From sequence record MK373794.1: DNA of 64,000 bases, one strand, 5' to 3'. The position numbers and the translations under genes were made by a program. The stretch's first letter is position 1. Each line of letters starts with the position of its first letter. Shown one piece after another: positions 1-64,000 of this stretch. Source of the DNA: Escherichia phage vB_EcoS_HdK1. A model generated the notes under the pieces. The model saw only the letters and a list, made by a program, of their open reading frames with translations, had not been told where the DNA came from and made no database searches.

Positions 1-105
1 TTTATATAAATACACACATATACACATTTTTACCTTATTTTTCATGCACTTACCTCCTTTCATTTCGTATATTAAGCGACAATATACGAGCAATATAAGA
101 AATAT

Positions 106-119
106 TTGTTGCGCAACAA
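106..119. repeat. Perfect 14-bp palindrome TTGTTGCGCAACAA in the non-coding control region (second copy at 60798..60811)
   Basis: Read directly from the sequence; lies in the ~1.07-kb non-coding region spanning 60336..60692 and 1..678. Confidence 0.6.
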
Positions 120-617
120 CGAGGCGCTCACAAGCTCGCGCACGCGCATAATGCGGGCACGCGGTCTAACACAAAAGAAAATTGAATTGCAAGCGATTTT
201 TGCTGAGGTAACTCTCGAAGCGAAAGCGATTTGCGAGTTTGAAATTTTGTAGCCCGAAAACGATTCTATTTTATGGTATAAATGTCGGATTTTTCGGTGA
301 AAGGTGGCTTTTCGGTGAGGTTGGGTGGCTGGGATCGGTGTAACTGGTAGCCCATAAAGCGAAAATAGCCGCGAAAACGGGGCACGCAGCGCGATTAAAT
401 GGTTGGATCAGTGTAAGGGTGGCGGTGAGGGGGCGAAAATGCCGCAAAATCGCTTACAGGGATGCAGGGAGTGGGCCGCTGTAAGGGCGTATAAGGCGAT
501 TAAATTGGAGTCTATGGTAATGTATGGAAGATGGATTTAGGCTCTTAGAGCGCGAATGGTGGAGCTATGGGTGAGGAATATGTGGTCAGCAGGGTAGCGC
601 GGGAGGTTATGCAGGTA

Positions 618-660
618 CAAAAACGAAAGCGCCCCGTTGGACTTCAACAGGGCGCGGATT
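618..660 (-). terminator. Rho-independent terminator ending the leftward early operon
   Basis: GC-rich inverted repeat GCGCCC..GGGCGC directly downstream of the stop of the 679..927 gene; on the minus strand it is followed by a T-rich tract. Confidence 0.55.
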
Positions 661-678
661 GTATAATGCTTTTAGAAG

Positions 679-927
679 TTATTTACTAGTTAATAATACC
701 GCCCAGGTATTATCTGGAAGCGTACCAACTCCGAGTATCTTAAACTGAAGCGACTTGTTCTGCATGTTGTAGTTGTCGAGTAACTCCTGGGCAGCCGCAG
801 CAGCGTTCGCTTCACCGTTCAGGTTGTAGTCGTTTGCAGTTATTGCACACATACCGAGACCGACCGCTTTGAAGCGCATACCTTTGGATTGAGTCGGTGC
901 AAGTGCTTTAACATGGATAGCGTTCAT
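679..927 (-). CDS. Hypothetical early protein, 82 aa (paralog family A)
   Basis: ORF track; shares an AAAA(Q/E)EL..F(K/E)ILG/SGG..P(D)..(W/Y)A pattern with the 1458..1703 product. Confidence 0.5.
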   Translation of the reverse strand: MNAIHVKALAPTQSKGMRFKAVGLGMCAITANDYNLNGEANAAAAAQELLDNYNMQNKSLQFKILGVGTLPDNTWAVLLTSK

Positions 928-956
928 ATTATTTATCTCCGTTACAATTTGAAAGG

Positions 957-1220
957 TTAGCAGTTTTTTAACAGGTTGATGAAGCCCACCAGCGTGGACG
1001 CTGTTGCAACCAGGCGGCCCATAGTATGCAGTTCCGCGTAAACTTTACCGTCGTCAAACACAGTTAAATAAACGTTAAGACCATTGCAACGGACGCGATA
1101 TTTGCGCGAGTTATTACCAAAAGTTTCCAGCTCTGCGGTGATAGTCGCAAGATTAGCTATACGTTTGCCGATAATGCGGCGAGTGATAGTGGACTGGTTT
1201 AATACTGTAGACATAATCAT
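957..1220 (-). CDS. Hypothetical early protein, 87 aa (paralog family B)
   Basis: ORF track; N-terminal motif STITRRIIGKRI matches SQITKRIIGKRL of the 2529..2835 product; AGAGG ribosome-binding site upstream. Confidence 0.5.
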   Translation of the reverse strand: MIMSTVLNQSTITRRIIGKRIANLATITAELETFGNNSRKYRVRCNGLNVYLTVFDDGKVYAELHTMGRLVATASTLVGFINLLKNC

Positions 1221-1245
1221 TTCCTCTGTTAACTATGCGAAGTGC

Positions 1246-1274
1246 ATATTATTGCCCACTGTTACTATGGGCAA
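1246..1274 (-). promoter_or_regulatory. Sigma70-like promoter (minus strand: -35 TTGCCC, 17-bp spacer, -10 TAATAT) overlapped by an inverted repeat (candidate operator)
   Basis: Hexamers and spacing read from the reverse complement; inverted repeat TTGCCCA-N9-TGGGCAA at 1252..1274 covers the -35 box and spacer; lies 26 bp upstream of the 957..1220 start. Confidence 0.45.
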
Positions 1275-1282
1275 TGTATATG

Positions 1283-1447
1283 TCACTCAGCGGACACATA
1301 TTCTAACGCTTCTGATAGTGTAGCGAAGTAACCATCGCTCACCAGATTAATAGCGTACTCAAGTTGATCGCGGGTCAGGTTGCGAAACTTGTTACGGATG
1401 TGATAGCAACGACCGCGATAAATAACCTGGAAATAGTTGCGTTCCAT
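1283..1447 (-). CDS. Hypothetical small protein, 54 aa
   Basis: Internal ATG of the 1283..1603 track ORF preceded by AAGGGG; the longer track ORF would overlap the neighbouring gene. Confidence 0.4.
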   Translation of the reverse strand: MERNYFQVIYRGRCYHIRNKFRNLTRDQLEYAINLVSDGYFATLSEALEYVSAE

Positions 1448-1457
1448 AATTATCCCC

Positions 1458-1703
1458 TTATGCAACGATGAACGCGTAACCGCTTTGATCCGGGAGTTCA
1501 CCACCGGAAAGAATTTCAAACTCAACGCCCGCTTTATCGCTGAACTTTTTGATAAGCTCTTCCGCTGCGGCGCGGTGGTTGCCGTAAACACCAAGATCGT
1601 CACGCCACGTGATAGTCAAGGAGCCGTTCCAACCTGTTGCTTTTACGCGCGGGTTACGGGTGGCAGTCGGGTTCATGAATTTTGTGATGATAGCTTGAGC
1701 CAT
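1458..1703 (-). CDS. Hypothetical early protein, 81 aa (paralog family A)
   Basis: ORF track; paralogous to the 679..927 product. Confidence 0.5.
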   Translation of the reverse strand: MAQAIITKFMNPTATRNPRVKATGWNGSLTITWRDDLGVYGNHRAAAEELIKKFSDKAGVEFEILSGGELPDQSGYAFIVA

Positions 1704-1708
1704 GATAA

Positions 1709-1894
1709 TTACTCCGGTAAAATTACAGTGACGTTAATATTTGCAAGGCGAGCGCACTCGCGGAAACCTTTTACATAAGCATCCATTTCGTCATAGGATG
1801 CGAAAGTTGCGTCCGGGACTGGTCCGTTGTTAATATTCACGCAATATTCGTGTTCGTCCAGGTCAACCCAACAAGTCAGAACGATAGTTTCCAT
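1709..1894 (-). CDS. Hypothetical small protein, about 61 aa
   Basis: Internal ATG (METIVL..) preceded by GGAGGG; acidic, Cys-containing. Confidence 0.4.
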   Translation of the reverse strand: METIVLTCWVDLDEHEYCVNINNGPVPDATFASYDEMDAYVKGFRECARLANINVTVILPE

Positions 1895-1972
1895 ATTATT
1901 TGCCCTCCGTATAATACAGACCCGCAACTATTGGAGCTCCGAAAACTAAGAAAGCTAATAAATAGAACATAA

Positions 1973-2452
1973 TTAGTTACCCCCTTTATTGTTGAGCCCG
2001 TTGAATTTACGCCATGCGTAGAATTCAATCGTTGCATTATTAATATTCCAACCATTAGCTTTCGCAAGGTCACGGACGTTACCAATAGTTGGCACACCAT
2101 CAGGCAACATATTATCCAGGGCATTCCAAACGTCTGCGCATTTACCTTTAATCGGGCGACGAACCCCGTTGCGCGTTTCGCTGCGCGTTTTGCTCTTGGC
2201 TGGAGCGACCGGAGCTTGTTGTGTGGTCACTTCCACGACAGTCGCTTTATCAGCTTCCACCAGATCGCTAGCTGCCTTATTAACCGCGCTTTCGCTGTAC
2301 CAGTAGCGACCACCGTCTTCGTGCGGTTCCTGGTGAATAAAGCTATTTGCTGTCGCAGTGTCCACATCCAGAACCTTTTTTAAGGCACGGCGAGCGTTAG
2401 ACATAGTGGCGAAGAAGCGAGCGTCTTTTGCTACGCGAGTGATAGTAACCAT
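1973..2452 (-). CDS. Hypothetical early protein, about 159 aa
   Basis: ORF track; start placed at the ATG preceded by GGAGAT; no recognisable catalytic motif. Confidence 0.45.
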   Translation of the reverse strand: MVTITRVAKDARFFATMSNARRALKKVLDVDTATANSFIHQEPHEDGGRYWYSESAVNKAASDLVEADKATVVEVTTQQAPVAPAKSKTRSETRNGVRRPIKGKCADVWNALDNMLPDGVPTIGNVRDLAKANGWNINNATIEFYAWRKFNGLNNKGGN

Positions 2453-2492
2453 TGTGAATATCTCCATGTTGTTCTAGCGGATTGCTAGTGGG

Positions 2493-2513
2493 AGCCCACT
2501 GTTACAATGGGCA
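2493..2513. repeat. Second copy of the conserved inverted-repeat element GCCCACTGTTAC(A/T)ATGGGCAA
   Basis: Near-identical to 1252..1274; both sit in intergenic gaps between leftward early genes. Confidence 0.55.
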
Positions 2514-2528
2514 ACCATTAGCACGCTA

Positions 2529-2835
2529 TTATTGTTGAATAGCTTTATCTATCATTGCGATGAAGCAGAACACAGACCAAAGGCTATTCGCTTGGCATAC
2601 TGCGCGACCATACATTACGCTATAAGAGCTGACAGTACCGTCCTCGTTAATGCGAATATATAACGCGGTGCTGGAATACTTTTCGTTGCCCGGGAGCATT
2701 ACTAAATACTCGTCGAAACCCCAATCCCCGTCGACTTTTTCCGCAGTAAGGCCCAGTTGGTGCAGTCGCTTGCCAATAATGCGCTTAGTAATCTGAGATT
2801 GGGACATGGAACGCGGTAAGTAGATAATGGACATA
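2529..2835 (-). CDS. Hypothetical early protein, about 102 aa (paralog family B)
   Basis: ORF track; start placed at the ATG preceded by AAGGGAG; paralogous to the 957..1220 product. Confidence 0.5.
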
Positions 2836-2909
2836 ATGCAATCTCCCTTCGGGTGAGGCGGGCGCGGAACCCGTGTCCCGCTTAACAACCCCCTTAACCC
2901 TACACAGTT

Positions 2910-2938
2910 ATAGTATGACAACGGGGTATCAGATGCAA
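2910..2938 (-). promoter_or_regulatory. Sigma70-like early promoter for the leftward operon (minus strand: -35 TTGCAT, 17 bp, -10 TACTAT)
   Basis: Hexamers and spacing read from the reverse complement, about 75 bp upstream of the first leftward gene. Confidence 0.4.
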
Positions 2939-3014
2939 CTATTATCTGCAATATTTTAGAACTTTTTTAGTTGTGTTTCATAATAATAACATCCGGGACT
3001 ATGCGGTAGATGGT

Positions 3015-3088
3015 GTGCCGGAAATACCAGGTAGCGCGAGCGTGCCGAAAATACCAGGTAACAGCACGCGCCGAACATACCAGGTAGC
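3015..3088. repeat. Three tandem ~27-bp iteron-like repeats (core ATACCAGGTA) followed by an AT-rich tract; candidate origin or protein-binding array (second copy 63707..63780)
   Basis: GTGCCGGAAATACCAGGTAGC / GTGCCGAAAATACCAGGTAAC / CGCCGAACATACCAGGTAGC read directly; AT-rich stretch at about 3130..3230. Confidence 0.55.
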
Positions 3089-3476
3089 ACATACATAGAC
3101 AGCACATAGTGGGCAGGTGGATAGTAACAGATGCAATTATACTGGACGGTACAGTATAGTCATGTAATAGATAGCATACTAATTAAATAAAAAATAATAA
3201 CGCGTGTAACAATAAACAACGTTACAGTAGAGCGCGCAACAGTCACATGACGTAACAATCACCTCACTGACGATCACGGGACGTTATAGTAACGCCGCGG
3301 GGCGGCTCTTAGATCTCTGCCAAGGATTCTAGACGTAAACATTGAATCGCCACTAGACTATTTACATCACAACCTCACTCCTCACACAATAATACATAGA
3401 ATTTAAATCCGTATATAAATACTCGAGATAGTATCTACATATTCGAGGATGAGTGCTCAATCATTGTAGGTTATAA

Positions 3477-5163: not shown

Positions 5164-5517
5164 ATGAGCTTGCAACGTTTTGACAATGCAGAACTCGCGT
5201 GTGAATTTGCAAAGCGCAAGTTCGCTAAAACAGGTACGCCGCGATGCGTGCACGCGGCTATTGGGCAAAATGGGGCAAAGTATTGGTACGTTGGTACAGT
5301 AGCTCAGATCAAGCGAAGATTCGCGACTACGCTCGAAATGCGCCGGCTTGGGTCCCCTACACTTGTACGAAACAGGCACTTGGATAAAGAGGAAATTTAT
5401 CAATTTCTCAGAAATTACACTGGTAAAGAGAATAGATTTCAGGTTGCAGCGAAAGAGTTTAATATTGGTCTTTCCACTGCTTATAAAATTTATCACATAT
5501 ATGGGCGTTTAATATGA
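5164..5517 (+). CDS. Hypothetical protein with a C-terminal helix-turn-helix-like segment
   Basis: Segment AAKEFNIGLSTAYKIY fits an HTH pattern. Confidence 0.35.
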   Translation: MSLQRFDNAELACEFAKRKFAKTGTPRCVHAAIGQNGAKYWYVGTVAQIKRRFATTLEMRRLGSPTLVRNRHLDKEEIYQFLRNYTGKENRFQVAAKEFNIGLSTAYKIYHIYGRLI

Positions 5518-6017
5518 CCGCAATTGCTTATCGTAATGGGATATTAGCTGTAGATCGACAGGTTACATGGGGTAATATTGCAACGACTACGAATAAAGTT
5601 CATACTATCAGTATTCCAGGGATTGGTCTGTGTCTTGTTGCCATGTCTGGTAAACTACGTGCTGTAGATGACATTGTAGAACATTTACAAACTACGTCAC
5701 GTGGACGCAAAGAACCTTTCTCAGATTTAAACCCAGATTCGCGTTATGGTATTGCTGTGACGCAGGAACTTGTCGTATATCCTATCTACGGGGATGGTAA
5801 ATTAGGTCTACCGGACACTAACGAATTTATTGCGGAAGGTAGTGCGTTTGAGTTCTTGATGGGTGCAATGGCGGGAGGTTGCACCGCCGAAGAGGCTGTA
5901 CGACTGGCGTGCGTATACTGCGACAGTTGTGGTCAAGGGGTTAAGTTCTATGACGTAGCTTATACTCTAAAGTGGCGCAGTGTAAAATCGAGGAGAAACC
6001 ATTTTGAAGAAGCCTAA
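5514..6017 (+). CDS. Putative Ntn-hydrolase peptidase (HslV/proteasome-like)
   Basis: N-terminus MTAIAYRNGILAVDRQVTWGN parallels the HslV N-terminus with Thr directly after the initiator Met; G-rich hydrophobic cores follow. Confidence 0.4.
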   Translation: MTAIAYRNGILAVDRQVTWGNIATTTNKVHTISIPGIGLCLVAMSGKLRAVDDIVEHLQTTSRGRKEPFSDLNPDSRYGIAVTQELVVYPIYGDGKLGLPDTNEFIAEGSAFEFLMGAMAGGCTAEEAVRLACVYCDSCGQGVKFYDVAYTLKWRSVKSRRNHFEEA

Positions 6018-6195
6018 GACTGGTCTGTTCCTTTGTGTTGGTGGACCTTTTGACGGTAAGCGTATACGCTTAACAACATCAGATTTGTATCCAAGTTCTT
6101 CCGTTTTCTCTGTTCCATCCTATAAAAACGGTGAGAAGGGGAAATACGTCTGGAATGATGAAATTCGAAACAGTGTAATCTGGAGAACATCGTGA
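6004..6195 (+). CDS. Hypothetical small protein, 63 aa
   Basis: ORF track (TTG start). Confidence 0.3.
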   Translation: MKKPKTGLFLCVGGPFDGKRIRLTTSDLYPSSSVFSVPSYKNGEKGKYVWNDEIRNSVIWRTS

Positions 6196-6419
6196 GTGAT
6201 TCTACAAATGCGCAATTAGCCGCTGCAAGAGTGTATATGCGCGGAGCTGCCGCTGAGATTGATGCTTTGCCACAATTTGAAAAGCATGTACAGCAACTCG
6301 AAGATAAATTTAAGACTCTTAAAGATCTAGGGGATACGAAAGATGCTATAGCCTTTCTTCTTGCTATCCAATACTTGTCTATGGGGGTTGGTGACAAAGT
6401 ATGTTCCTTAGAAGAATAA
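6192..6419 (+). CDS. Hypothetical small protein, 75 aa
   Basis: ORF track (GTG start). Confidence 0.3.
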   Translation: MSDSTNAQLAAARVYMRGAAAEIDALPQFEKHVQQLEDKFKTLKDLGDTKDAIAFLLAIQYLSMGVGDKVCSLEE

Positions 6420-6931
6420 TTGGTATTGTTGCACCTTGGATACCACTTGTCATAATTGTTATTCTAGCCAACTGGGCTTATGACAATGCCATAGAATCAG
6501 CTAGAAAGGAGGGTTTCGATGCCGGTGTGTCGTACCAAAAAGAAACTCAGAAAGCGGTTGATTTCGAGGAGGAGAAACGAAGAGCGTATGAGAAAGACAC
6601 TATCGAACGTCAGTACAGATCTCGTATTGAATCTTTGGTTGCGATCTTAATAATTATCGCGCTACTAATGACAGGTTGCACAACGAAATCGCAACCGTCC
6701 GTAAGTACCTCGGTGACGCTACCGGCCCTCAGCCCGACAGCAAGACAACCGCCCAGATCGCCCGTGTGCTCACCGAGCTGTATTCAGAAAGCGTCACAGA
6801 ATACAGACAAGTGGCAGAAGAGGCTGAAAAGTATCGTATTGCCGGCGAGCAGTGCGAACTACAGTATGATGCAATGCGAAATCCGCGTAAAGAAAAGTGA
6901 TAAACTGCAAAGTCCTTGCCGGGTTGCGTAA
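6401..6931 (+). CDS. Candidate spanin locus: N-terminal transmembrane protein (i-spanin-like) whose frame also carries an internal lipobox and Pro-rich segment (o-spanin-like)
   Basis: N-terminal TMD IIGIVAPWIPLVIIVILA, charged helical region, then LLMTGC lipobox followed by a Pro/Cys-rich tail; sits directly upstream of the endolysin-like and holin genes. Confidence 0.4.
   Translation: MFLRRIIGIVAPWIPLVIIVILANWAYDNAIESARKEGFDAGVSYQKETQKAVDFEEEKRRAYEKDTIERQYRSRIESLVAILIIIALLMTGCTTKSQPSVSTSVTLPALSPTARQPPRSPVCSPSCIQKASQNTDKWQKRLKSIVLPASSANYSMMQCEIRVKKSDKLQSPCRVA
6676..6900 (+). CDS. Embedded alternate-frame ORF with coiled-coil character (possible C-terminal part of the i-spanin)
   Basis: Charged helical sequence lying wholly inside 6401..6931 in another frame; this frame is open from 6631. 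Confidence 0.3.
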   Translation: MHNEIATVRKYLGDATGPQPDSKTTAQIARVLTELYSESVTEYRQVAEEAEKYRIAGEQCELQYDAMRNPRKEK

Positions 6932-7022
6932 CTAAACGTTCAATCTTAATTGCACATAATTGATTGTGTACATGTGATAATTCAACTATGCTCTATTCGG
7001 TTTAACTGAATGGAGCTTTTTT

Positions 7023-7457
7023 ATGACTGTGCAACCACGAGGTATCCGGAATAACAATCCGGGAAATATTCGTTGGGGTGATAATTGGAAAGGTCTTGTT
7101 CCTGAAAACAAACGGACTGACCGTTCCTTCTGTCAATTTATCGATGTAAAATACGGTATTCGCGCCATTGCGCGTATTCTACTAAACTACCGCAACCGCG
7201 AAGGAATGAAACGTGTCGGAAACAAAGGGATTGACACTGTACGGGAGATTATTTCGCGCTGGGCTCCGCCGAATGAAAATAACACTGAAGCCTATATTCA
7301 ATCTGTGGCTAAGGCTTGTGGTGTTGGTGCAGAACAGCCGATTTCAGTGACCGATGATAAAATCATGCTTGCAATCGTGAAAGCGATTATCAAACATGAG
7401 AACGGTGTGCAACCTTATTCTGATGAAGTTTTGCTCGCGGGTATTCACATGGCATAG
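7023..7457 (+). CDS. Putative endolysin (peptidoglycan hydrolase), 144 aa
   Basis: Conserved N-terminal GIRNNNPGNIRWGDNWKG motif; position between the spanin candidate and the holin; GGAG ribosome-binding site. Confidence 0.5.
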   Translation: MTVQPRGIRNNNPGNIRWGDNWKGLVPENKRTDRSFCQFIDVKYGIRAIARILLNYRNREGMKRVGNKGIDTVREIISRWAPPNENNTEAYIQSVAKACGVGAEQPISVTDDKIMLAIVKAIIKHENGVQPYSDEVLLAGIHMA

Positions 7458-7470
7458 TAAGAGGTTATAA

Positions 7471-7779
7471 GTGTCGCCGAACTGGGATTGGAATATAGTT
7501 TTTATTCTCACTGCCATTGCGATGGTAGGGGGTTCCCTTGGCTACGCTGCAAGAACCCATGATGCTAAAGAAAGGTTCAGACTTAGTGTCTTCATTCAAG
7601 AGGGTGCTTTTTCTGCATTCTTTGGTTTCTTGATAGGTGTAATTAACGTGGAACATGGTGTCTCACTGGGGCTCAGTGGGGCGTTCATAGGCGTGTTATC
7701 TTGGTCCGGTTCAAGAACCATGCTAAAGTTTCTACGGAGAAAGACAGAAGCATGTGACCGAGAAAAGGAAAGAGGTTGA
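7471..7779 (+). CDS. Putative holin, 102 aa
   Basis: Small protein with at least two hydrophobic helices and a charged C-terminus, adjacent to the endolysin-like gene. Confidence 0.55.
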   Translation: MSPNWDWNIVFILTAIAMVGGSLGYAARTHDAKERFRLSVFIQEGAFSAFFGFLIGVINVEHGVSLGLSGAFIGVLSWSGSRTMLKFLRRKTEACDREKERG

Positions 7780-12815: not shown

Positions 12816-12822
12816 TAAAATT

Positions 12823-12871
12823 TGTTGACACTCCCTCCGGTTGGTGCTAGTTTTACATCAACCGGAGCACG
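12823..12871 (+). promoter_or_regulatory. TTGACA hexamer plus 9-bp stem-loop upstream of the major capsid gene
   Basis: Inverted repeat CTCCGGTTG..CAACCGGAG at 12833..12871. Confidence 0.35.
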
Positions 12872-12953
12872 GGCTCCGATCAATCAAGGATTATTGGAGC
12901 CTCCCACGGCGGTAGAGTTCCAAAGTAAATCGATTAACTTTGCGGAGACTACC

Positions 12954-14071
12954 ATGTCTAAAATTCTGTCAGCTCCGATGCTTAATTTGCGAGCTACCAA
13001 TTCAATTCTTCTGTCTGCTGTTCGTCGTGGTGCAATCACTGAACTTGCAGATGTTATCGTTCCAGAGATCTTCGTACCGTATGTGCAGAACCGCACAACT
13101 GAAAAGTCCCGACTGATCCAGTCTGGTGCTATTGAGATTTCTGAGCGTCTTAACGCTGCATTGATGGGTGAAGGTACTACCTTTAACCAGCGTTTCTTCA
13201 AAGATCTGGATCGTGACGAAGAAAACGTTTCAAGCGCAAGCGATTCAACCGATTCTACTCCTGGTGGTATCAAATCTGGGCGTGAAATTCAGATCCGTCT
13301 GTCCCGTAACCATTCCTGGGGTTCTGCGGACCTGCTGGACAGCCTGATCTCCCCGGACCCGCTGGATGCTATCATTAACTTAGTGGCAAGCTACCGTCAG
13401 AGCCGTCTGCAACGTGCATTCGTTGCAACTGTCAGTGGTGTGTTTGCTATGAACGCCGCTGCTCTCCGGTTGGTTCCGGTGATAAGAAGTCTACCCATGT
13501 TCAGAACGATATGACCCATGATATCTCTGGTTCATCCTTCACTGATGGTGTGACTAACTTCAACCCGGCCGGTGTTATCCTGGCGGCTGGTACTATGGGT
13601 GACTCCCTGAACGACCTGTCCATGATGATGGTTCACAGTGTGGTTTACCAGCGTATGCAGCTGATGAACCTGATCGACTTCATCCCGGATGCCCGTGCTG
13701 AAGTAATGATCCCAACTTACATGGGCCGTGAAGTTATCGTTGATGATATGATGCCTCACGATAGCGGTAAGTACGAAACCTGGCTGGTCGGTCGTCGTGG
13801 TGCATTCCAGTTAGGTGTTGGTTCACCGAAAGTTCCTGTTGAAACTGAACGTAAACCTGCGTCCTACAAAGGTGGCGGTTCTGAAATCCTGTTCCACCGC
13901 TGGGAAAACATCATTCACCCTGTCGGTCACGCATGGGTTGGTACTGCTGCTGAAGGTGGCCCGGATAACGCCGCTCTGAAGACTGCTGCCAACTGGGCTC
14001 GTGTATTCCCTGAGCGTAAACAGATTAAGATTGCTCGCCCTGATCACTCGCGAACACGCTTAATGCTTTAG
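12954..14071 (+). CDS. Major capsid protein, split into two frames by an apparent frameshift near 13455..13510
   Basis: Track ORFs 12822..13514 and 13511..14071 are contiguous in different frames; alternate frame reads VGSGDKKSTHVQNDMTHD across the junction; position after scaffold; flanked by terminators. Confidence 0.7.
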
Positions 14072-19055: not shown

Positions 19056-19447
19056 GATCCCGCGAAAAGCTAATTGATCACTTACTGCTCGAATGGCAAT
19101 TGCACAGTTGCCCGCCGGGCAGTAAGACTCCAACAATTAAACATCTCCAGCACGTTAAAAAAGTCACTGGTAAGACTCCCTCCTTACTAGCAAAGTACGA
19201 ATCCAGCTCCGTACCACACGAACTCAGATACATTTACAAGTTATTTCTTGACTTTTATAATGGTGATAAATTCAGTTACAGCGAATTTAACGCCTGGCAA
19301 GATTATATAGGTGTAGAACTTGATTTCAGAGAGCGTGAACTAATTCGGGCCAGATTTGTCTTGAACGGCAAGCATTTGATATTAGGCGTCAACAAGAACT
19401 TATGCAACACGCTCAGACCAATAATAAAGGAGGTAAATAATGGCTGA
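19046..19447 (+). CDS. -1 frameshift extension of the tail assembly chaperone (GT-like fusion product)
   Basis: The -1 frame is open from 19013 through the chaperone stop to 19447; slippery heptamer T TTT TTC at 19046..19052; the extension overlaps the tape measure start. Confidence 0.5.
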   Translation, partial: FFLRSREKLIDHLLLEWQLHSCPPGSKTPTIKHLQHVKKVTGKTPSLLAKYESSSVPHELRYIYKLFLDFYNGDKFSYSEFNAWQDYIGVELDFRERELIRARFVLNGKHLILGVNKNLCNTLRPIIKEVNNG

Positions 19448-22400
19448 TGCAGCTGACATCGTCATTAGAGTCCGTGCTGAAGGTATTCAGAATGCTGAAA
19501 CAGCACTGCGACGCTTGCAAGCGGCAGGTGTAAGAGTTGAGACTGTCAGCTCGCGTATGGAGAATGGTTTTCACCGTGCGGCTACAAGTGCTGACGCGTT
19601 CCATCATGCCATTAGTGCAATCTATACGGTAATGACTGTAACCACACTGACATCCTACGTCGGTGGGCTTGCTAAGTTATCGGATGCGTGGCTGGACGTT
19701 ACTAACAAACTGGCTAACGCCAACTCTGCAAACGAGCAGATGGTTGATATTCAAGAGCGAGTATTTGGTATCGCTCAAAGAACTCGTACGAGCCTGGAAG
19801 CTACGTCAACTCTTTATGCTCGTATGGAACGTTCACTGAACCAGTACGGTGTGACTGGTAAACAGGTCGCTCAGATCACTGAAACAATTAACAAGGCAAT
19901 GATTGTTTCTGGTGCAACCACTGCGGAATCCACTGCTGCTATTATCCAGTTCTCACAGGGTCTGCAATCTGGTGTGTTACGTGGGGACGAATTCCGTTCT
20001 GTAATGGAACAAGCTCCTCGTCTTGGTAAGATGATTGCAGATGGTCTTGGTGTTGGTACTGCTGGTCTACGCCAGATGGCTAACACTGGACAATTAACCG
20101 CTGATGTTGTTATTAACTCCATCTCTAAAGCTGCATCAACTATTGACGATGAGTTTAATCGTACAATACCAACGTTCTCTCAGCGAATGGAGATTGCGAA
20201 TAACAACTTAATTAAATTCGCGGGGAACGTCAACCTCGGTACAAACTGTGGTCAATTCAATGGGTGCTGTCATTGAAACTGCTACAGACCACCTCACCTT
20301 GCTGTCTAATGTCGCAATCGGTGTTGCTGCTATTGTTGGCGGTCGAATGATTACTGCACTGGCTGCACAGATTGCGGCATTCATAAAGCTCAACGCGATA
20401 CAAGCAAGTAGCTCGGCCATAAACATTAAGACTATTGATGGTATCACAAGATCCGCAGTAGCTCGATATAATGAAGCACAAGCAACGTTAGCACAGGTTG
20501 CAGCCGAGCGCACCAAGATTCAGGCAGCATTGCAAGCCAACCAAACGTATTATAAAGGTATAGCGACACTCAACGCATACATGCAGAATACGCGGCAGGT
20601 GCGCGAAGCTACGGAAGCGGTTGCTATTGCCCAGACTACCATGCAGGCGCGTATGTCTGCCGCGACCGTAGCGTCCCGTGTGCTTACTGTCACCATGACA
20701 GGACTGCGGACGGTAATGGGCTTGATGGGTGGACCTGTAGGTGTGGTCACATTGGCTGCTGCCGCATGGTTCATGTGGAGTCAAAATAGCAAACAAGCTG
20801 TCCAGGATGCACAGAACCTTGCTTCCTCCCAAGAAGATTTAAAGAACAAGTTAAAAGAAACAACTCTTGAACAGCAACGAGCTCTTAGTGTTCAGTTGCA
20901 ACGTGCCGCTATTACGTTGGACGAACAGATTGCCTCTGAAAACAGGGAGTTGGCTGAATTAAAGAACCGTCTTAGCACAGTAACGCGCTATCAAGCTGAA
21001 GCAACTGAAGGAACAAGCGAGTATAACCGACTCACTAAAGACCGTAAGGAATTAGAAGGTGATGTCGCTATTAAGATTGGTGAAATATCCACTCTTGAGC
21101 AAAAAGCACAACAGATTAAATCTAATTTAACGACTGTACTGAACAATTTAACTGCTGCTGTAATGGGTCACACCGATGCACTCAAAGCAGAAAACGAGCA
21201 GTTATCTATTAATATCAGTTCTGCTGCCGGTCGTTCGAAGGAGCTAGTTAGTGCAATCCAAGCTCAGAATAATGAGCTCGATGTTGCTCAATTGAAGATG
21301 TCTGGTCATGCACGACAAGCAAGCATCTTAAAAGATGCTCAGACAGCTCTTGGTAAGAAGTATAAAGAAAACGAATCGTTCATCCAAGAATTATATTAGC
21401 GGTCACGCTGACGCAACTGCTGTATTAACGGATGAGCAACGAGGACTGGTTGAATTTATCAACTTGTCTGGAAAGAACTATGACGCTCAGAAGAAGATCC
21501 ATGAACAGCAAGAAAAAGAACGTCAGAGTAAGAAAGACAATAAAGCTGCCATACGCTATGCTGAACAATGGGATAAAGCATATGAACGCGTAGAAGCGCG
21601 TGGTGCTACTGGTTTACAGCGTCTTAACTTACAGCAAGAAGCTGAAGTTCGTGCTATTCGTGATAAAGCTGAACGAGCTAAAGCATCTGAAGAAGAATTA
21701 CAGAATGCCTTACTGGCTATTCAACGTAAGTACGATCTGAAACGTGCAGAACTGGCAGAGCAGTACAAGCCAGGCGTTGCAATGGTGCGTGCGTACAAAG
21801 AAGCCCAGCAAGAAATAAATCAGTTGCTTGAAGCTGGTTTATTGACAGAGCAACAGGCATATACGGCTAGATTGAATTTGCAGGCGGATTATTATACAAA
21901 ACGTGCGCAAATGCAATCTGAATTGAACCCCGCTGGACAAGCTGCTGATCAAGAAGCTGCTGAACTTGCAACACTTAAATCCCAGTATGAAACAGCGATT
22001 GAATTAGCTACTGGTAAGGAAGAGCAACTAACCGCTATCAAAGAGAACTATGAGCGCATACGACACGACATTCAGTTGAAGTACGCTCAGAAGCAGATGC
22101 TCGCACAGAACCAGACGGCAATGGCTTACATTGAAAGTCTGAGCTCTATGGCTGGATCAATGACCACAATTATGGCGGCTGCTGGCGATGATGCTAGTGG
22201 TGCTTACAGGGTTATGTTCGCACTGTCTAAATCGTTCAGTATTGCTCAGTCGATGTTAAGTATTACTACCGCACTGTCGCAGGTGTTAGCAGATCCGACA
22301 GCATTGACACCGATGCAAAAGATGGCCAACTACGCGACTATTGCAGCCGCTGGTGCTAACATTATTTCGACATTATCCAGTGTCGCCCTTACTGGTATGG

Positions 22401-22702
22401 CTCACGATGGTATAGCCAACGTTCCAGAAGAGGGTACGTGGCTTCTGAATAAAGGTGAACGAGTTCTTAGTCCCCAACAGAACGCGGACTTTACTAACTT
22501 TATGAAGGGTCAATCAAATACTGGCAATAATTCGGGTGGGGGTGTTATCATTAACCAGAACTTTAACATCCAGGGTAATGGTGATGCAGCTTTGAAAAGC
22601 GCAGTTCAACAAGCTGCGAGAGATGGCGCCCAGCAAGGTTATAACATGGTACTCCAAGACTTTGCTAACCGTGGATCAATTAGAAAATTAGCGTTGGGGT
22701 AA
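19440..22702 (+). CDS. Tape measure protein, fragmented into three frames by apparent frameshifts near 20240 and 21390
   Basis: Three contiguous track ORFs (19440..20276, 20248..21399, 21335..22702), all Ala/Gln-rich and helical; about 1087 aa combined, located between chaperone and distal tail genes. Confidence 0.75.
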
Positions 22703-30800: not shown

Positions 30801-31492
30801 TGCAGGGTCAACCCTTCGATAAAGCTGCATACCCGAAACTTGCTGCTGCATACCCGTCGGGTGTACTTCCAGACATGCGTGGTCAAACTATCAAAGGTAA
30901 ACCAGCAAGCGGTCGTGACGTACTTTCTACAGAAGCTGATGGTGTGAAATCACATACTCACACTGCGTCTACTGCATCTGTCGATCTTGGAAGCAAGACA
31001 ACTTCTAGCTTTGATTATGGTACTAAAGGGACAAGTAGTTTCGACTACGGTACTAAGACGAGTAATAATACTGGTGCGCATACACATGGTATTAGCGGAA
31101 CAGCAAATAGTGCAGGTGGGCACCAACACCATAGTTCTGGACCATATGCGAATTCTAGTGATAGTGATCTCTTTCCTAACGGTTATACCCAGGTTTCAGT
31201 CACAAACAAACCAGTTGTACCACGGCAAGGTGGCGCAGGTATGACCCGTGTATCAGGGAAGACATCATCAGATGGAGCACATACCCACTCGTTATCCGGT
31301 AGTGCCGCAAGCGCAGGTGCTCACGCACACACTGTTGGTATTGGTGCTCACACACACTCAGTCGGTATTGGTGCTCATAGTCATACAGTCGCTTTAGGTT
31401 CACACAGCCACGGTGTTACAGTTAACGCAACTGGTAACACGGAAAACACCGTTAAGAACGTTGCATTCAACTATATTGTGAGGGCTGCTTAA
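27826..31492 (+). CDS. Side tail fibre protein, with an apparent frameshift near 28150..28160
   Basis: Track ORFs 27826..28161 and 28058..31492 are contiguous in different frames; Ala/Ser-rich N-terminal region; C-terminus with repeated His-x-His segments ([16 protein letters not shown]..). Confidence 0.75.
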
Positions 31493-32071
31493 TGTCTTTT
31501 GAAATGAGTAATGAAGACCAGACTGTAACTGTGTACGACTACTCCAATGATACGGGGCGAATATGTGGGAACCCGTGAAGCGTATGTGGTGGCCAACACA
31601 GGTCTTCCAGCATGTTGTACTGATATGGAGCCTCCAGTGGCTCCAGAAAATCATGTGGCAGTATTTAGACCGGAAAGTCAGGTATGGATTCTGCGTGAAG
31701 ACCATCGAGGGAAAGTTGTATATGATAAAGATACAGGACTTCCTTTAGTGATAACCACAATAGGATCTCTTCCGGATAATGTAACCTATATTGCTCCCGA
31801 TGGTGAACACATGAAGTGGAACGGCGATATGTGGGTAAACGATCCGGACGCACAACATGCTAAGTCGGTTGCGGATGCAGCACAACATAAAACGGATCTT
31901 CTTAATTTAGCAGATTATAAAATCAGTATTCTGCAGGATGCTGTGACTTATAATCTAGCTACTGACGAAGAAAGTTCGATGCTTGACTCCTGGAGAAAGT
32001 TTCGCGTACTTGTCAACCGTATAAACGAAAACAATCCACAGAATATTATCTGGCCTGAGTCTCCAGAATAA
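31492..32071 (+). CDS. Tail fibre assembly protein (Tfa-like chaperone), with an apparent frameshift near 31555
   Basis: ATG overlapping the fibre stop (TAATG); N-terminal frame [22 protein letters not shown] continues in the frame of track ORF 31547..32071. Confidence 0.65.
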
Positions 32072-54610: not shown

Positions 54611-54636
54611 ATGGGCGCATATAGCGCCCATTTTTT
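54611..54636. terminator. Terminator after the plus-strand moron (also downstream of the primase-like gene end)
   Basis: ATGGGCGC..GCGCCCAT stem followed by TTTTTT. Confidence 0.6.
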
Positions 54637-57201
54637 ATAACTTAATAACTTCGTTCATTCTCTCAATATCTACCAAATAACACTTCATTCTCGGTGGTGT
54701 AAACTCTGCGCCGAAGAAATTTGAAAAGTCCATTGGCCTCATCTCGGTAAGAACTTCCATAGACATCAAACCATAGATTGTATTGTCTATGACCTGTAGG
54801 ATGTTGTCATTTCTTGTCTGTTTAAAAGCCTTGAACTGGCGACATACTGTGCATAGATCACTCCTTGTGACAATAAATGCGTCCTTAAACATGGGAAACC
54901 GTTTATATACACCAGCTTTAACTTCACCATCCAAGAACTTCTTAATGGAGTTCAGCATTATCTTCTCACGACTTGTACTGTCCGTAGAACCAATCTGCCC
55001 ACTGTTACGCTTCTCTAAGAAACGCTCGTTACCCTGATCGATAAATGACTCAGCCCAACGATAATGTTCCATAGTGACAACAGGACGCTCACTGTTATCT
55101 GCAACAGCAAGAAGAGAAGCTATACGCAATACCTTCAACGCCTTCCTTGTGTACATCTGACGAATTACTTCGTCTTGCACCTGCTCACCATCATTGCCGC
55201 TGTTCAGGAACTTCGCAACAATATTATCAAGATTATCAAACGCTTCGTGTACCTCTGCTTCCATTTCAACATAACACGGAGCAGTCCCTGACATAATACG
55301 CACAGCTTGTTTATAGATAGCTCCAATAGTGCGCAGTATTGCTTCTGGATATTCCAGGAGCATACTCTTATTCATCAATGGGCGGTTAGCTGTACATTCC
55401 CATGCGATAATACGGGACATGAAACCACTCGACATCATGCGGTCATCTACGTTCCCGTAAAATTCATCTGGTGTTGTTTCACCTGCAAAACTATACGCCT
55501 TAACCTTACCGCCAGCAGTCGTATTATCTTTACTAGAGTGCTTTGAACCACCAGAGAAAGCATAGAAATGCCCCTTGTCATAAAGGGAAAGCATTTCATC
55601 CATAATGTCTTTAGCTTTACCGACTTCCATCTTACCGTTACGGAAAAAATGCACCGACTTCAGTCTTATAGTTAATGGATGAGCCACAAGACATAACGGA
55701 CGTATCCATTATGACATCCTTGCGCAATGCAGCATCAGACGCATAGGTACTTGTATCCAAGACACGTTCGATACCAAATATCTGCTGACCGTCTTGACCG
55801 CCATAATTGGATACTTGAGAAAAAAAAGAATAGTTTCAATGTTGGAGCGAAACGCTTCTTTACCAATACCAGAACGTGCAATTAGTACAAAGTAGTTATT
55901 CAAACCACTTCGTGTGACTGTGTTCCACGCCTTACCGCACATACCACTAAATAAAGCAAGCGCAGACAGAATACTAATGTCTTTAATAGGCAACAAGCTC
56001 GCTTTATACATATTACGCGCAACCTCGCCCATAAAGCCCGGAGGCCAAGCCAAACCGTCTGCCTGCTCTTCAGTGTAATTACCATCTGTAGTCAACACTT
56101 CTTCAGGTGGGCGTTCTGGTGTAGTTGCTTGACGTAGTTTTTCCGTGCGCTCTATAGCTGCATTAACGTTATTCTGAACTATCTGCATAAGTCCCATAGA
56201 TTTAACATGGGCATCGTAGCGATAGTTGCGAATCATTCTATCCAGGTGGTACGGACGTTTAATTTTTTCACCAGGCATACGACGGGGAATCATCGTAACG
56301 GCTACTCATTGGTGAATACATGAATAGACGTCTTACCTGGAAATTGTACTTACTCTTAAAGCAAAGAAAGTCAATTAATGCAAATTCTGCTTCAGACTGA
56401 GAAGGGAAACAACGTTCACCGATTAGAAGTATCAACTTCTTCAGCTCTCCAACGACCCTCCCATAGCTGCTTAAACAATGTTCCGTTTTCTTGTTCGCAC
56501 AACTGAATATAGACATCCTGGTCTTCCATTGCATATGGGTCGTTACTAAAATCTTCTTCAGTAAGTTCCAGCATTTGGAAGCCATCAGACTCATTAATCT
56601 CACTCATCTCAGACATAAGTTGGATGAATGAGATTAGCGATATACCCTTCGCTTTCACTGCCTGGAGCACCAGACACAGTGCGCGGGAGTAAAGTAACAT
56701 CCCAGTGATCCCCTGTACAGATAATAAAACGATACTGGGAATACACTTCCACACCGTCACGGCGCTTACCAGCCTGAGGGGATGGAATAAATCCATGTGT
56801 GCAACCCATCACCGCTTCTGGAAATTTCCGTATAGCTATGGAAACGATTCAACAATCTTCTTATATCGCTCACCAGCAACTTTCTTTTCCATTTCAGACA
56901 TGGTATCTTTAATGTCCATGTCGATACAACAGAACGGGTCACTTGGAAGTAGATAGAAACCTAAACGCAAGTTATGACCAATCTCGTTATAATAACGAAC
57001 GCAGCGTTCAGCATCTTCAAAAGACATAAGTAAATGCAGGTTAGACGGTTTCTTATCATTACCGTCTTTACGAAGTGGGACCATATCCCCTAAATCATCG
57101 TCCCATACATAAGGTTGTTTTTCTGATGATGTACCCGGATGGAAACCGCAGACAGCCCACTGTTCGTATTGTTTAATTTCTTGAGGAAAAAGTTCCAGCA
57201 T
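54635..57201 (-). CDS. Putative bifunctional DNA primase-polymerase (AEP-type N-terminal domain plus C-terminal domain), fragmented into at least five ORFs by apparent frameshifts
   Basis: Track ORFs 54635..55687, 55709..56293, 56416..56796 and 56836..57201 plus alternate-frame readings form one continuous coding region; AEP-like motifs CIDMD and RSGDGLH; frame changes at plus-strand A6 (55645..55650) and A8 (55821..55828) runs. Confidence 0.45.
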
Positions 57202-57210
57202 GTTATTACC

Positions 57211-59099: not shown

Positions 59100-59116
59100 A
59101 GCCTTCTGGAGTAAGA

Positions 59117-59446
59117 TTAATTTGCATGTTCACCTCGAAGCAGACGCTCGAGCTTCGATTTATTTTTGATAAGCTGATATTGCCGATCCACCACAAGCGC
59201 CTTCTGACGGTTACGCATAAGGTATTCGAACGCACTTTGAAAATCTTCGACTTTACCTTCATAACCTAAAGCCTTGGCGACGTGCGACACGCGATGGAAC
59301 AGAAAGTCCGCAAAGTCCATAATTTCCATCGCATTGACAATAGCGTCAAGTAAATCAGGATTTATATTCGGGTCCACCTTTTTAGCTTGTTCAAGAAGTC
59401 GCACCTTTGCTTTATATAAAGGTGAATTGCTTACTGTTTGCATCAC
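59117..59446 (-). CDS. Hypothetical protein, 109 aa
   Basis: ORF track. Confidence 0.4.
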   Translation of the reverse strand: MMQTVSNSPLYKAKVRLLEQAKKVDPNINPDLLDAIVNAMEIMDFADFLFHRVSHVAKALGYEGKVEDFQSAFEYLMRNRQKALVVDRQYQLIKNKSKLERLLRGEHAN

Positions 59447-60545: not shown

Positions 60546-61309
60546 CAGCAATATACGAAACGGCGAAGCGAAGTGTATGAAAAATAAGGGAAAATTTCGA
60601 GAGTTGGGAGGTTTGTAGTGATTTATATTATTTATAAAGGGGTCTCGTGGGGTCGTCAGTAGACAACTCAAAAATAAAAAATCTTTATAAAATTTATATA
60701 AATACACACATATACACATTTTTACCTTATTTTTCATGCACTTACCTCCTTTCATTTCGTATATTAAGCGACAATATACGAGCAATATAAGAAATATTTG
60801 TTGCGCAACAACGAGGCGCTCACAAGCTCGCGCACGCGCATAATGCGGGCACGCGGTCTAACACAAAAGAAAATTGAATTGCAAGCGATTTTTGCTGAGG
60901 TAACTCTCGAAGCGAAAGCGATTTGCGAGTTTGAAATTTTGTAGCCCGAAAACGATTCTATTTTATGGTATAAATGTCGGATTTTTCGGTGAAAGGTGGC
61001 TTTTCGGTGAGGTTGGGTGGCTGGGATCGGTGTAACTGGTAGCCCATAAAGCGAAAATAGCCGCGAAAACGGGGCACGCAGCGCGATTAAATGGTTGGAT
61101 CAGTGTAAGGGTGGCGGTGAGGGGGCGAAAATGCCGCAAAATCGCTTACAGGGATGCAGGGAGTGGGCCGCTGTAAGGGCGTATAAGGCGATTAAATTGG
61201 AGTCTATGGTAATGTATGGAAGATGGATTTAGGCTCTTAGAGCGCGAATGGTGGAGCTATGGGTGAGGAATATGTGGTCAGCAGGGTAGCGCGGGAGGTT
61301 ATGCAGGTA

Positions 61310-61352
61310 CAAAAACGAAAGCGCCCCGTTGGACTTCAACAGGGCGCGGATT
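61310..61352 (-). terminator. Second copy of the early-operon terminator (same as 618..660)
   Basis: Within the terminal duplication. Confidence 0.55.
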
Positions 61353-61370
61353 GTATAATGCTTTTAGAAG

Positions 61371-61619
61371 TTATTTACTAGTTAATAATACCGCCCAGGT
61401 ATTATCTGGAAGCGTACCAACTCCGAGTATCTTAAACTGAAGCGACTTGTTCTGCATGTTGTAGTTGTCGAGTAACTCCTGGGCAGCCGCAGCAGCGTTC
61501 GCTTCACCGTTCAGGTTGTAGTCGTTTGCAGTTATTGCACACATACCGAGACCGACCGCTTTGAAGCGCATACCTTTGGATTGAGTCGGTGCAAGTGCTT
61601 TAACATGGATAGCGTTCAT
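61371..61619 (-). CDS. Duplicate of the 679..927 gene (paralog family A)
   Basis: Identical translation in the ORF track. Confidence 0.5.
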   Translation of the reverse strand: MNAIHVKALAPTQSKGMRFKAVGLGMCAITANDYNLNGEANAAAAAQELLDNYNMQNKSLQFKILGVGTLPDNTWAVLLTSK

Positions 61620-61648
61620 ATTATTTATCTCCGTTACAATTTGAAAGG

Positions 61649-61912
61649 TTAGCAGTTTTTTAACAGGTTGATGAAGCCCACCAGCGTGGACGCTGTTGCA
61701 ACCAGGCGGCCCATAGTATGCAGTTCCGCGTAAACTTTACCGTCGTCAAACACAGTTAAATAAACGTTAAGACCATTGCAACGGACGCGATATTTGCGCG
61801 AGTTATTACCAAAAGTTTCCAGCTCTGCGGTGATAGTCGCAAGATTAGCTATACGTTTGCCGATAATGCGGCGAGTGATAGTGGACTGGTTTAATACTGT
61901 AGACATAATCAT
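61649..61912 (-). CDS. Duplicate of the 957..1220 gene (paralog family B)
   Basis: Identical translation in the ORF track. Confidence 0.5.
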   Translation of the reverse strand: MIMSTVLNQSTITRRIIGKRIANLATITAELETFGNNSRKYRVRCNGLNVYLTVFDDGKVYAELHTMGRLVATASTLVGFINLLKNC

Positions 61913-61974
61913 TTCCTCTGTTAACTATGCGAAGTGCATATTATTGCCCACTGTTACTATGGGCAATGTATATG

Positions 61975-62139
61975 TCACTCAGCGGACACATATTCTAACG
62001 CTTCTGATAGTGTAGCGAAGTAACCATCGCTCACCAGATTAATAGCGTACTCAAGTTGATCGCGGGTCAGGTTGCGAAACTTGTTACGGATGTGATAGCA
62101 ACGACCGCGATAAATAACCTGGAAATAGTTGCGTTCCAT
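61975..62139 (-). CDS. Duplicate of the 1283..1447 gene
   Basis: Within the terminal duplication. Confidence 0.4.
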   Translation of the reverse strand: MERNYFQVIYRGRCYHIRNKFRNLTRDQLEYAINLVSDGYFATLSEALEYVSAE

Positions 62140-62149
62140 AATTATCCCC

Positions 62150-62395
62150 TTATGCAACGATGAACGCGTAACCGCTTTGATCCGGGAGTTCACCACCGGA
62201 AAGAATTTCAAACTCAACGCCCGCTTTATCGCTGAACTTTTTGATAAGCTCTTCCGCTGCGGCGCGGTGGTTGCCGTAAACACCAAGATCGTCACGCCAC
62301 GTGATAGTCAAGGAGCCGTTCCAACCTGTTGCTTTTACGCGCGGGTTACGGGTGGCAGTCGGGTTCATGAATTTTGTGATGATAGCTTGAGCCAT
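62150..62395 (-). CDS. Duplicate of the 1458..1703 gene
   Basis: Identical translation in the ORF track. Confidence 0.5.
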   Translation of the reverse strand: MAQAIITKFMNPTATRNPRVKATGWNGSLTITWRDDLGVYGNHRAAAEELIKKFSDKAGVEFEILSGGELPDQSGYAFIVA

Positions 62396-62400
62396 GATAA

Positions 62401-62586
62401 TTACTCCGGTAAAATTACAGTGACGTTAATATTTGCAAGGCGAGCGCACTCGCGGAAACCTTTTACATAAGCATCCATTTCGTCATAGGATGCGAAAGTT
62501 GCGTCCGGGACTGGTCCGTTGTTAATATTCACGCAATATTCGTGTTCGTCCAGGTCAACCCAACAAGTCAGAACGATAGTTTCCAT
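62401..62586 (-). CDS. Duplicate of the 1709..1894 gene
   Basis: Within the terminal duplication. Confidence 0.4.
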   Translation of the reverse strand: METIVLTCWVDLDEHEYCVNINNGPVPDATFASYDEMDAYVKGFRECARLANINVTVILPE

Positions 62587-62664
62587 ATTATTTGCCCTCC
62601 GTATAATACAGACCCGCAACTATTGGAGCTCCGAAAACTAAGAAAGCTAATAAATAGAACATAA

Positions 62665-63144
62665 TTAGTTACCCCCTTTATTGTTGAGCCCGTTGAATTT
62701 ACGCCATGCGTAGAATTCAATCGTTGCATTATTAATATTCCAACCATTAGCTTTCGCAAGGTCACGGACGTTACCAATAGTTGGCACACCATCAGGCAAC
62801 ATATTATCCAGGGCATTCCAAACGTCTGCGCATTTACCTTTAATCGGGCGACGAACCCCGTTGCGCGTTTCGCTGCGCGTTTTGCTCTTGGCTGGAGCGA
62901 CCGGAGCTTGTTGTGTGGTCACTTCCACGACAGTCGCTTTATCAGCTTCCACCAGATCGCTAGCTGCCTTATTAACCGCGCTTTCGCTGTACCAGTAGCG
63001 ACCACCGTCTTCGTGCGGTTCCTGGTGAATAAAGCTATTTGCTGTCGCAGTGTCCACATCCAGAACCTTTTTTAAGGCACGGCGAGCGTTAGACATAGTG
63101 GCGAAGAAGCGAGCGTCTTTTGCTACGCGAGTGATAGTAACCAT
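62665..63144 (-). CDS. Duplicate of the 1973..2452 gene
   Basis: Identical translation in the ORF track. Confidence 0.45.
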   Translation of the reverse strand: MVTITRVAKDARFFATMSNARRALKKVLDVDTATANSFIHQEPHEDGGRYWYSESAVNKAASDLVEADKATVVEVTTQQAPVAPAKSKTRSETRNGVRRPIKGKCADVWNALDNMLPDGVPTIGNVRDLAKANGWNINNATIEFYAWRKFNGLNNKGGN

Positions 63145-63220
63145 TGTGAATATCTCCATGTTGTTCTAGCGGATTGCTAGTGGGAGCCCACTGTTACAAT
63201 GGGCAACCATTAGCACGCTA

Positions 63221-63527
63221 TTATTGTTGAATAGCTTTATCTATCATTGCGATGAAGCAGAACACAGACCAAAGGCTATTCGCTTGGCATACTGCGCGAC
63301 CATACATTACGCTATAAGAGCTGACAGTACCGTCCTCGTTAATGCGAATATATAACGCGGTGCTGGAATACTTTTCGTTGCCCGGGAGCATTACTAAATA
63401 CTCGTCGAAACCCCAATCCCCGTCGACTTTTTCCGCAGTAAGGCCCAGTTGGTGCAGTCGCTTGCCAATAATGCGCTTAGTAATCTGAGATTGGGACATG
63501 GAACGCGGTAAGTAGATAATGGACATA
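63221..63527 (-). CDS. Duplicate of the 2529..2835 gene
   Basis: Identical translation in the ORF track. Confidence 0.5.
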
Positions 63528-63706
63528 ATGCAATCTCCCTTCGGGTGAGGCGGGCGCGGAACCCGTGTCCCGCTTAACAACCCCCTTAACCCTACACAGT
63601 TATAGTATGACAACGGGGTATCAGATGCAACTATTATCTGCAATATTTTAGAACTTTTTTAGTTGTGTTTCATAATAATAACATCCGGGACTATGCGGTA
63701 GATGGT

Positions 63707-63780
63707 GTGCCGGAAATACCAGGTAGCGCGAGCGTGCCGAAAATACCAGGTAACAGCACGCGCCGAACATACCAGGTAGC
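63707..63780. repeat. Second copy of the three tandem iteron-like repeats (same as 3015..3088)
   Basis: Within the terminal duplication. Confidence 0.55.
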
Positions 63781-64000
63781 ACATACATAGACAGCACATA
63801 GTGGGCAGGTGGATAGTAACAGATGCAATTATACTGGACGGTACAGTATAGTCATGTAATAGATAGCATACTAATTAAATAAAAAATAATAACGCGTGTA
63901 ACAATAAACAACGTTACAGTAGAGCGCGCAACAGTCACATGACGTAACAATCACCTCACTGACGATCACGGGACGTTATAGTAACGCCGCGGGGCGGCTC

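Follow-up and report, generated by a model that had tools for sequence, protein, structure and literature searches.

The spanin-like locus at 6401 to 6931 of Escherichia phage vB_EcoS_HdK1 (MK373794.1; the window is the whole 64,000-nt stretch of this record that was analysed, and all positions refer to it) is, judging by its homology, the standard two-component spanin pair of the 9g-like (Nonagvirus) coliphages, a known pair, with annotations already in place in sister phages. The frame layout in which it was deposited is very probably, at roughly 90%, an artefact of this known locus, caused by a consensus or base-calling error that removed a single C. Both of the predicted spanin genes are broken in the deposited sequence. 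The biological weight of the finding is small, the spanin pair being standard for 9g-like phages and annotated in sister genomes, and the odd layout most probably being no biological feature at all; its practical value lies in the curation of the record.

As deposited, the plus strand carries an open reading frame of 176 aa (6401..6931), the product of which begins with MFLRRIIGIVAPWIPLVIIVILANW and is recorded as a 'hypothetical protein' (QBQ80919.1 / HdK1rev_00015). The original prediction had placed in this long frame an N-terminal transmembrane helix and, further along, a lipobox LLMTGC with a tail rich in proline and cysteine, and both were found there. The most hydrophobic 19-residue window of the ORF covers residues 6-24 with a mean Kyte-Doolittle value of 2.49 (plus strand, 6416..6472), a putative i-spanin helix that is kept in 12/12 relatives. 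After this transmembrane part follow about 55 charged residues, then ...LVAILIIIALLMTGC, and then a tail rich in Pro, Ser, Thr and Cys. LLMTGC forms residues 88-93, its L-M-T-G-C portion (plus strand, 6665..6679) fitting a PROSITE PS51257-type pattern and being invariant in 12/12 relatives, and the 84 residues from the lipobox Cys (codon 6677..6679) onward include 9 Pro, 5 Cys and 21 Ser plus Thr.

An i-spanin periplasmic domain contiguous with the transmembrane domain (TMD) in one ORF is absent from the deposited sequence, the remainder of that domain lying in another frame, as had also been predicted. This frame is open from 6631 only (plus strand, 6631..6900) and encodes ...DLNNYRATNDRLHNEIATVRKYLG...EQCELQYDAMRNPRKEK, the C-terminal 85 residues of an Rz-like i-spanin. 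Its sole start is a TTG at 6676 without an SD sequence, from which a 74-aa ORF (6676..6900) had been called; exact look-up of this ORF returned no record, and it is never called as a gene elsewhere. There is also a third piece, absent from the original prediction. ATG 6588, which would be the true o-spanin start and has an SD-like GGAGGAG upstream, lies in the third frame, where its translation gives an o-spanin N-terminal remnant of 20 codons, MRKTLSNVSTDLVLNLWLRS* (plus strand, 6588..6650), closed by a TAA at 6648..6650 with a second TAA directly after it. In the deposited sequence, a frameshift separates the lipobox from this ATG and from the R2/K3 n-region of the signal peptide. When the 176-aa ORF was compared with profile libraries, no match was obtained in Pfam, and two partial matches were obtained in PHROG, to phrog_312 over residues 10-81 only (E=6e-10) and to phrog_11621 over residues 80-157 only (E=3.5e-21). 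With both halves of the ORF matching spanin families, the observed layout of frames is evidently not due to chance.

The lesion itself lies at 6641/6642, where the window reads TTGGTTGCGATC and 23/23 related Nonagvirus (9g-like) genomes and contigs read TTGGTTGCCGATC. Their CC, presumably the ancestral state, is reduced by one C in the window (GCCGATC to GCGATC on the plus strand), which on the minus strand amounts to the loss of a G from GATC-GG-CAA. A MAFFT alignment of the window with 12 annotated relatives shows a difference at this one place, where the window has TTGGTTGC-GATC and 12/12 relatives have TTGGTTGCCGATC. The 11 further independent contigs, drawn from metagenomes in ENA, Logan assemblies and a single NCBI assembly and sharing the window's neighbouring proteins, read GCCGATC without exception (11/11), and for most of them the missing C is the sole gap across 6001..7500 of the window. 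The original prediction of a frameshift error between about 6630 and 6680 is thus supported at a definite position. Since the lesion falls in a 314-nt stretch common to both genes, at codon 81/82 of the i-spanin and codon 19 of the o-spanin, the deletion swaps the frames of both. The one-base deletion in this overlap leads i-spanin residues 1-81 to continue into o-spanin residues 20-114, yielding the chimeric 176-aa ORF (the junction was computed); the o-spanin start enters the third frame and terminates after 20 codons, and the C-terminal domain of the i-spanin is left without a start. The original prediction had located the frameshift in the i-spanin, which holds, but the o-spanin is hit as well, being cut off from its start codon and from the positively charged N-region of its signal peptide.

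Repair consisted of one C inserted after 6641. The interrupted i-spanin gene (plus strand, 6401..6900; residues 1-81 read in the 6401 frame and 82-166 in the 6631 frame), which measures 500 nt in the window versus 501 nt in relatives, then encodes a 166-aa protein that agrees letter for letter with a 'DUF2514 family protein' found on 39 contigs. The protein matches Pfam PF10721 (3.7e-11, above the gathering score) and, over its full length (residues 10-163), phrog_312 'Rz-like spanin' (9e-42), and its residues 82-166 are identical to the translation of the frame left without a start. The interrupted o-spanin gene (plus strand, 6588..6931; its ATG 6588 shares a frame with signal-peptide residues 1-18, and residues 20-114 are read in the 6401 frame) becomes a 114-aa ORF in the +1 frame, MRKTLSNVSTDLVLNLWLPILIIIALLMTGC..., which matches phrog_11621 (3e-21). 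The pair would accordingly comprise an inner-membrane i-spanin, with an N-terminal TMD and an Rz-like helical periplasmic domain (DUF2514), and an outer-membrane lipoprotein as o-spanin. Lipoprotein and transmembrane features, which had been proposed for checking on corrected frames, appear there as a PS51257-type lipobox with Cys31, in the repaired o-spanin and in 12/12 relatives alike, and as a Kyte-Doolittle TMD at residues 6-24 of the i-spanin, conserved in 12/12 relatives with a presumed type II (N-in/C-out) orientation.

The proposed comparison with the spanins of related phages also bears on the repair, in that the i-spanin frame runs uninterrupted in 23/23 relatives. When 6150..7000 was searched by blastn against annotated phages, 17 records were returned, all of them Nonagvirus (9g-like, Queuovirinae) at 92-99% identity. 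Every relative has the i-spanin as a single CDS of 501 nt and 166 aa (in JenP1, 498 nt and 165 aa), a downstream start being used in some records, at 477 nt. A 114-aa ORF in the +1 frame is present in 12/12 relatives, with its ATG at +187 of the i-spanin (184 in JenP1), GGAGGAG upstream, an invariant LMTGC, Cys31 and a mature part of 84 aa; as a gene, this 345-nt o-spanin is annotated in two BASEL phages, FritzHoffmann and ChristophMerian. Fragments of a Nonagvirus i-spanin also occur on short contigs (819 and 4,020 nt) of a Sulfoacidibacillus thermotolerans assembly (PWI50799.1 / PWI54341.1). These fragments, of 74 and 92 aa, were considered as a second sighting of the frameshift and rejected, as they keep the normal ...SLVADLNNY... 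frame and differ by substitutions only; they are almost certainly contamination by another Nonagvirus coliphage.

In the overlapped architecture, as defined by Kongari et al. 2018 (PMC6139136), the o-spanin starts within the i-spanin in another frame and runs beyond its stop. The repaired window and 12/12 relatives agree: the o-spanin starts at 0.37 of the i-spanin length, overlaps the i-spanin gene by 314 nt and runs on for 31 nt beyond its stop. Because of this 31-nt overhang, the predicted native architecture is 'overlapped' under the published definition (PMC6139136) and not 'embedded'. Of the original proposal of an embedded o-spanin combined with a frameshift, the frameshift therefore stands and the embedding does not.

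Several known spanin systems can be set beside the repaired pair. The closest are those of other Nonagvirus phages, namely the pair of FritzHoffmann (Bas20; i-spanin QXV79353.1, o-spanin QXV79354.1) and ChristophMerian (Bas19), which represents the same locus, and the 'Rz-like spanin' of 9g, JenK1, JenP1, JenP2 and SE1, which occupies the same genomic place. In all of these and in the window, the spanins lie between a cluster containing an HslV-like gene and the endolysin and holin genes, with 92-99% nucleotide identity over 851 nt. Once the one C is added, the proteins of the window and of the Nonagvirus pair are nearly identical, only the missing C at 6641/6642 setting the window apart. LysB/LysC of phage P2, the prototype of overlapped two-component spanins (PMC6139136), was compared by architecture alone; it shares with the Nonagvirus pair an o-spanin that starts inside the i-spanin in the +1 frame and passes its stop, as well as the combination of a type II inner-membrane protein with an outer-membrane lipoprotein. 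In contrast to LysB/LysC, the mature Nonagvirus o-spanin is long (84 aa), and the overlap of 314 nt leaves an overhang of just 31 nt. Rz/Rz1 of phage lambda resembles the pair in its N-terminal TMD, helical periplasmic domain and Pro-rich lipoprotein in the +1 frame, and the Nonagvirus i-spanin belongs to the 'Rz-like spanin' PHROG. Lambda Rz1 is, however, wholly contained in Rz and so embedded, whereas the Nonagvirus o-spanin overruns the i-spanin stop.

The quality of the whole record was assessed by comparing the window with three complete relatives, HdSG1, 9g and JenK1, an indel being counted as private where one genome departs from all the others, which agree among themselves. In the window, 35 indels are private (25 insertions and 10 deletions), 26 of them single-base and 31 not a multiple of 3, compared with 1 in JenK1, 11 in 9g and 20 in HdSG1, where they are mostly clustered in divergent stretches. 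Examples in the window lie at 13462, 14038, 14786, 15074, 15754, 19349, 20222 and 21384, and further ones at 28137, 37441, 42719, 44088, 55644-56842 and 59109-60178. When 59 JenK1 RefSeq genes were translated and searched in each genome, 12/59 conserved genes proved to be split across frames in the window, as opposed to 1 in HdSG1 and 1 in 9g. The split genes are those for the major head protein (12819..14071), gp07, the head-tail adaptor, gp15, the tape measure (19437..22702, in three frames), the tail fibre, DpdA/TGT, gp37, gp38, the primase (54635..57210, in at least four pieces), gp66 and the i-spanin. Korf et al. 2019 (PMC6563267) propagated and purified HdK1, imaged it and determined its host range, and as it is thus a viable phage, frameshifts in its capsid, tape measure and primase genes cannot all be real. 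By these counts, MK373794 is indel-error-prone, with roughly one indel per 2 kb. The annotation lists 100 CDS and 89.8% coding sequence for HdK1 and 93 CDS and 91.1% for its sister HdSG1 (PMC6563267 Table S4), a combination of more CDS and a lower coding fraction that is to be expected from split genes. With the chimeric QBQ80919.1 and a dozen or so essential genes in pieces, the record needs polishing and, if left uncorrected, will mislead automated annotation, pangenome work and spanin surveys.

Other irregularities were noted in the course of this comparison. A private one-base deletion (T) at 5968, about 670 nt upstream of the spanin lesion, lies in the HslV-like peptidase gene (5514..6017) and the C-terminus of the product is altered, with 167 aa in the window versus 164 aa in relatives. 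The direct terminal repeat of about 3.4 kb (1..3428 and 60631..64000; 3.48 kb in Table S4) differs from HdSG1 by the same set of indels in both copies. For the tail-fibre assembly gene, HdSG1 (31398..31978) and JenK1 each list two CDS, HdSG1 with the remark 'putative frameshift'; the window (31529..32071), where there is an insertion at 31554 and 2 nt are deleted at 31771, has one longer ORF.

The deletion in the spanin locus, its uniqueness, the exchange of frames and the record-wide excess of indels are direct observations, from which we infer an error rather than a true mutation. The spanin indel is regarded as an artefact because it belongs to the record's population of about 30 private indels, and this reading is further supported because one added C restores a sequence present on 39 contigs, while exact look-up finds the 176-aa chimera on 1 contig only, the HdK1 record itself. 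Several points weigh against an error. The lesion is a deletion, whereas the private indels of the record are mostly insertions (25 vs 10); the coverage of HdK1 was high, at 228.7x; and a true frameshift in the spanins would be tolerable, unlike lesions in the capsid or the tape measure.

The one-base deletion could instead be genuine in the laboratory stock of HdK1, making the phage a natural double spanin knock-out that lyses its host through shear or a fragile outer membrane, although this is unlikely. Phages can do without spanins in laboratory cultures that are shaken and given no extra divalent cations, and lambda spanin knock-outs fail to lyse shaken cultures only when divalent cations reach millimolar levels (PMC6139136), so that such a mutant could be isolated and propagated. 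Another public contig, a Nonagvirus contig of 58,890 bp in ENA, carries an i-spanin truncated to 53 aa (...EEEKRF), an independent frameshift or error at a different site, which lends some support to real spanin mutations but could equally be an error. The prior for a genuine mutation is nevertheless low, given that 23/23 relatives are intact at 6641/6642; the spanin site shares its GGC context with other errors of the record; and the approximately 30 other private indels, which break the capsid, tape measure and primase, cannot be real. Slightly more doubtful still is the corollary that HdK1 would be a naturally spanin-null Nonagvirus, lacking both spanins and still forming plaques, that expresses a chimeric membrane protein with a TMD and a lipobox.

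The original prediction had also left room for a novel arrangement. It can be set aside, since no homologue covering both halves of the chimera was found among 5.8 billion protein clusters (maximum coverage 49%) and about 30 comparable indels occur in the record. Programmed -1 ribosomal frameshifting, or another form of recoding, might join the two frames into a full-length i-spanin, and the two i-spanin halves are indeed exactly -1 apart, with the target frame opening at 6631, just before the junction. This is very improbable, as the sole permissible interval (6631..6645) contains neither an X_XXY_YYZ heptamer nor a homopolymer run of 4 or more, the single heptamer in 6401..6700 (GGGTTTC at 6511) precedes stops in the target frame, 0/23 relatives need a shift, all being in frame, and the o-spanin would not be rescued by recoding. 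Least credible of all is a new single-chain spanin, in which the 176-aa ORF would link an inner-membrane anchor to an outer-membrane lipoprotein module; TMD and lipobox do share one frame, but the Rz-like C-terminal domain is missing from the ORF in its entirety, the ORF occurs in a single error-prone record, one base separates it from two normal genes, and we know of no precedent for the processing of an internal lipobox that follows a type II TMD. Unimolecular spanins do exist, and gp11 of phage T1 is superficially similar to the 176-aa ORF in having a lipobox and a TMD in one polypeptide, but such u-spanins carry the lipobox N-terminally and the TMD C-terminally (PMC6139136), the reverse of the order in the window, where the TMD lies at residues 6-24, the lipobox at 89-93 and no TMD at the C-terminus; the ORF is most probably an artefactual fusion.

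A possible source of the proposed errors is suggested by their sequence context. Contexts were counted on either strand as a run of G before A, GG before C, or a run of A after G, and 18/20 private single-base insertions lie at such GA or GGC-type contexts, which make up 35% of positions in the background (binomial p=6e-7, to be read with regard to the categories having been fixed after the contexts had been looked at). With the G-only categories, the figure is 13/20 insertions versus a background of 18%. On the minus strand, the spanin deletion takes a G out of a GGC. In the related Queuovirinae phage CAjan, 7-deazaguanine is inserted at the two motifs GA and GGC (PMC7544227; summarised in PMC10484667), which have been published for CAjan and not for any Nonagvirus. 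In phage 9g about 25% of G is replaced by deoxyarchaeosine (PMC10484667); no dG+ motif for 9g is apparent in Tsai 2017 (PMC5567051), and none is mentioned by Hutinet 2019 (PMC6884629). The study from which HdK1 derives sequenced part of its phages with PacBio RS II/HGAP3 and part with Illumina/SPAdes, the platform for HdK1 not being stated (PMC6563267). We infer that the errors of the record would arise from 7-deazaguanine-modified DNA disturbing single-molecule sequencing; if the consensus fails at particular motifs on native modified DNA, the indels would be expected to be as dense as they are and to lie in these contexts. The clustering at GA and GGC suggests that such modification of phage DNA lowers consensus accuracy in a motif-specific manner, which calls for caution in the assembly of Queuovirinae genomes from native DNA. 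There is also a hint that the errors might mark the positions of modified G, and that the Nonagvirus DpdA might target the same motifs as that of CAjan.

The remainder of the lysis cassette follows directly downstream of the spanins, in the order spanins, endolysin, holin. The endolysin gene (plus strand, 7023..7457) was assigned by its match to phrog_873 'endolysin' (2.9e-64) and by its annotation as endolysin in relatives, and the gene for a LydA-type holin (plus strand, 7471..7779) by matches to PF16083 Phage_holin_3_3 (1.4e-7) and phrog_785 (1.2e-27). The endolysin has no Pfam match in the library used, and its match to phrog_873 covers positions 353-487 of 1277. It also matches profiles annotated as tail injection transglycosylase and as tape measure, and its domain looks like one that is also found in virion-associated lysins.
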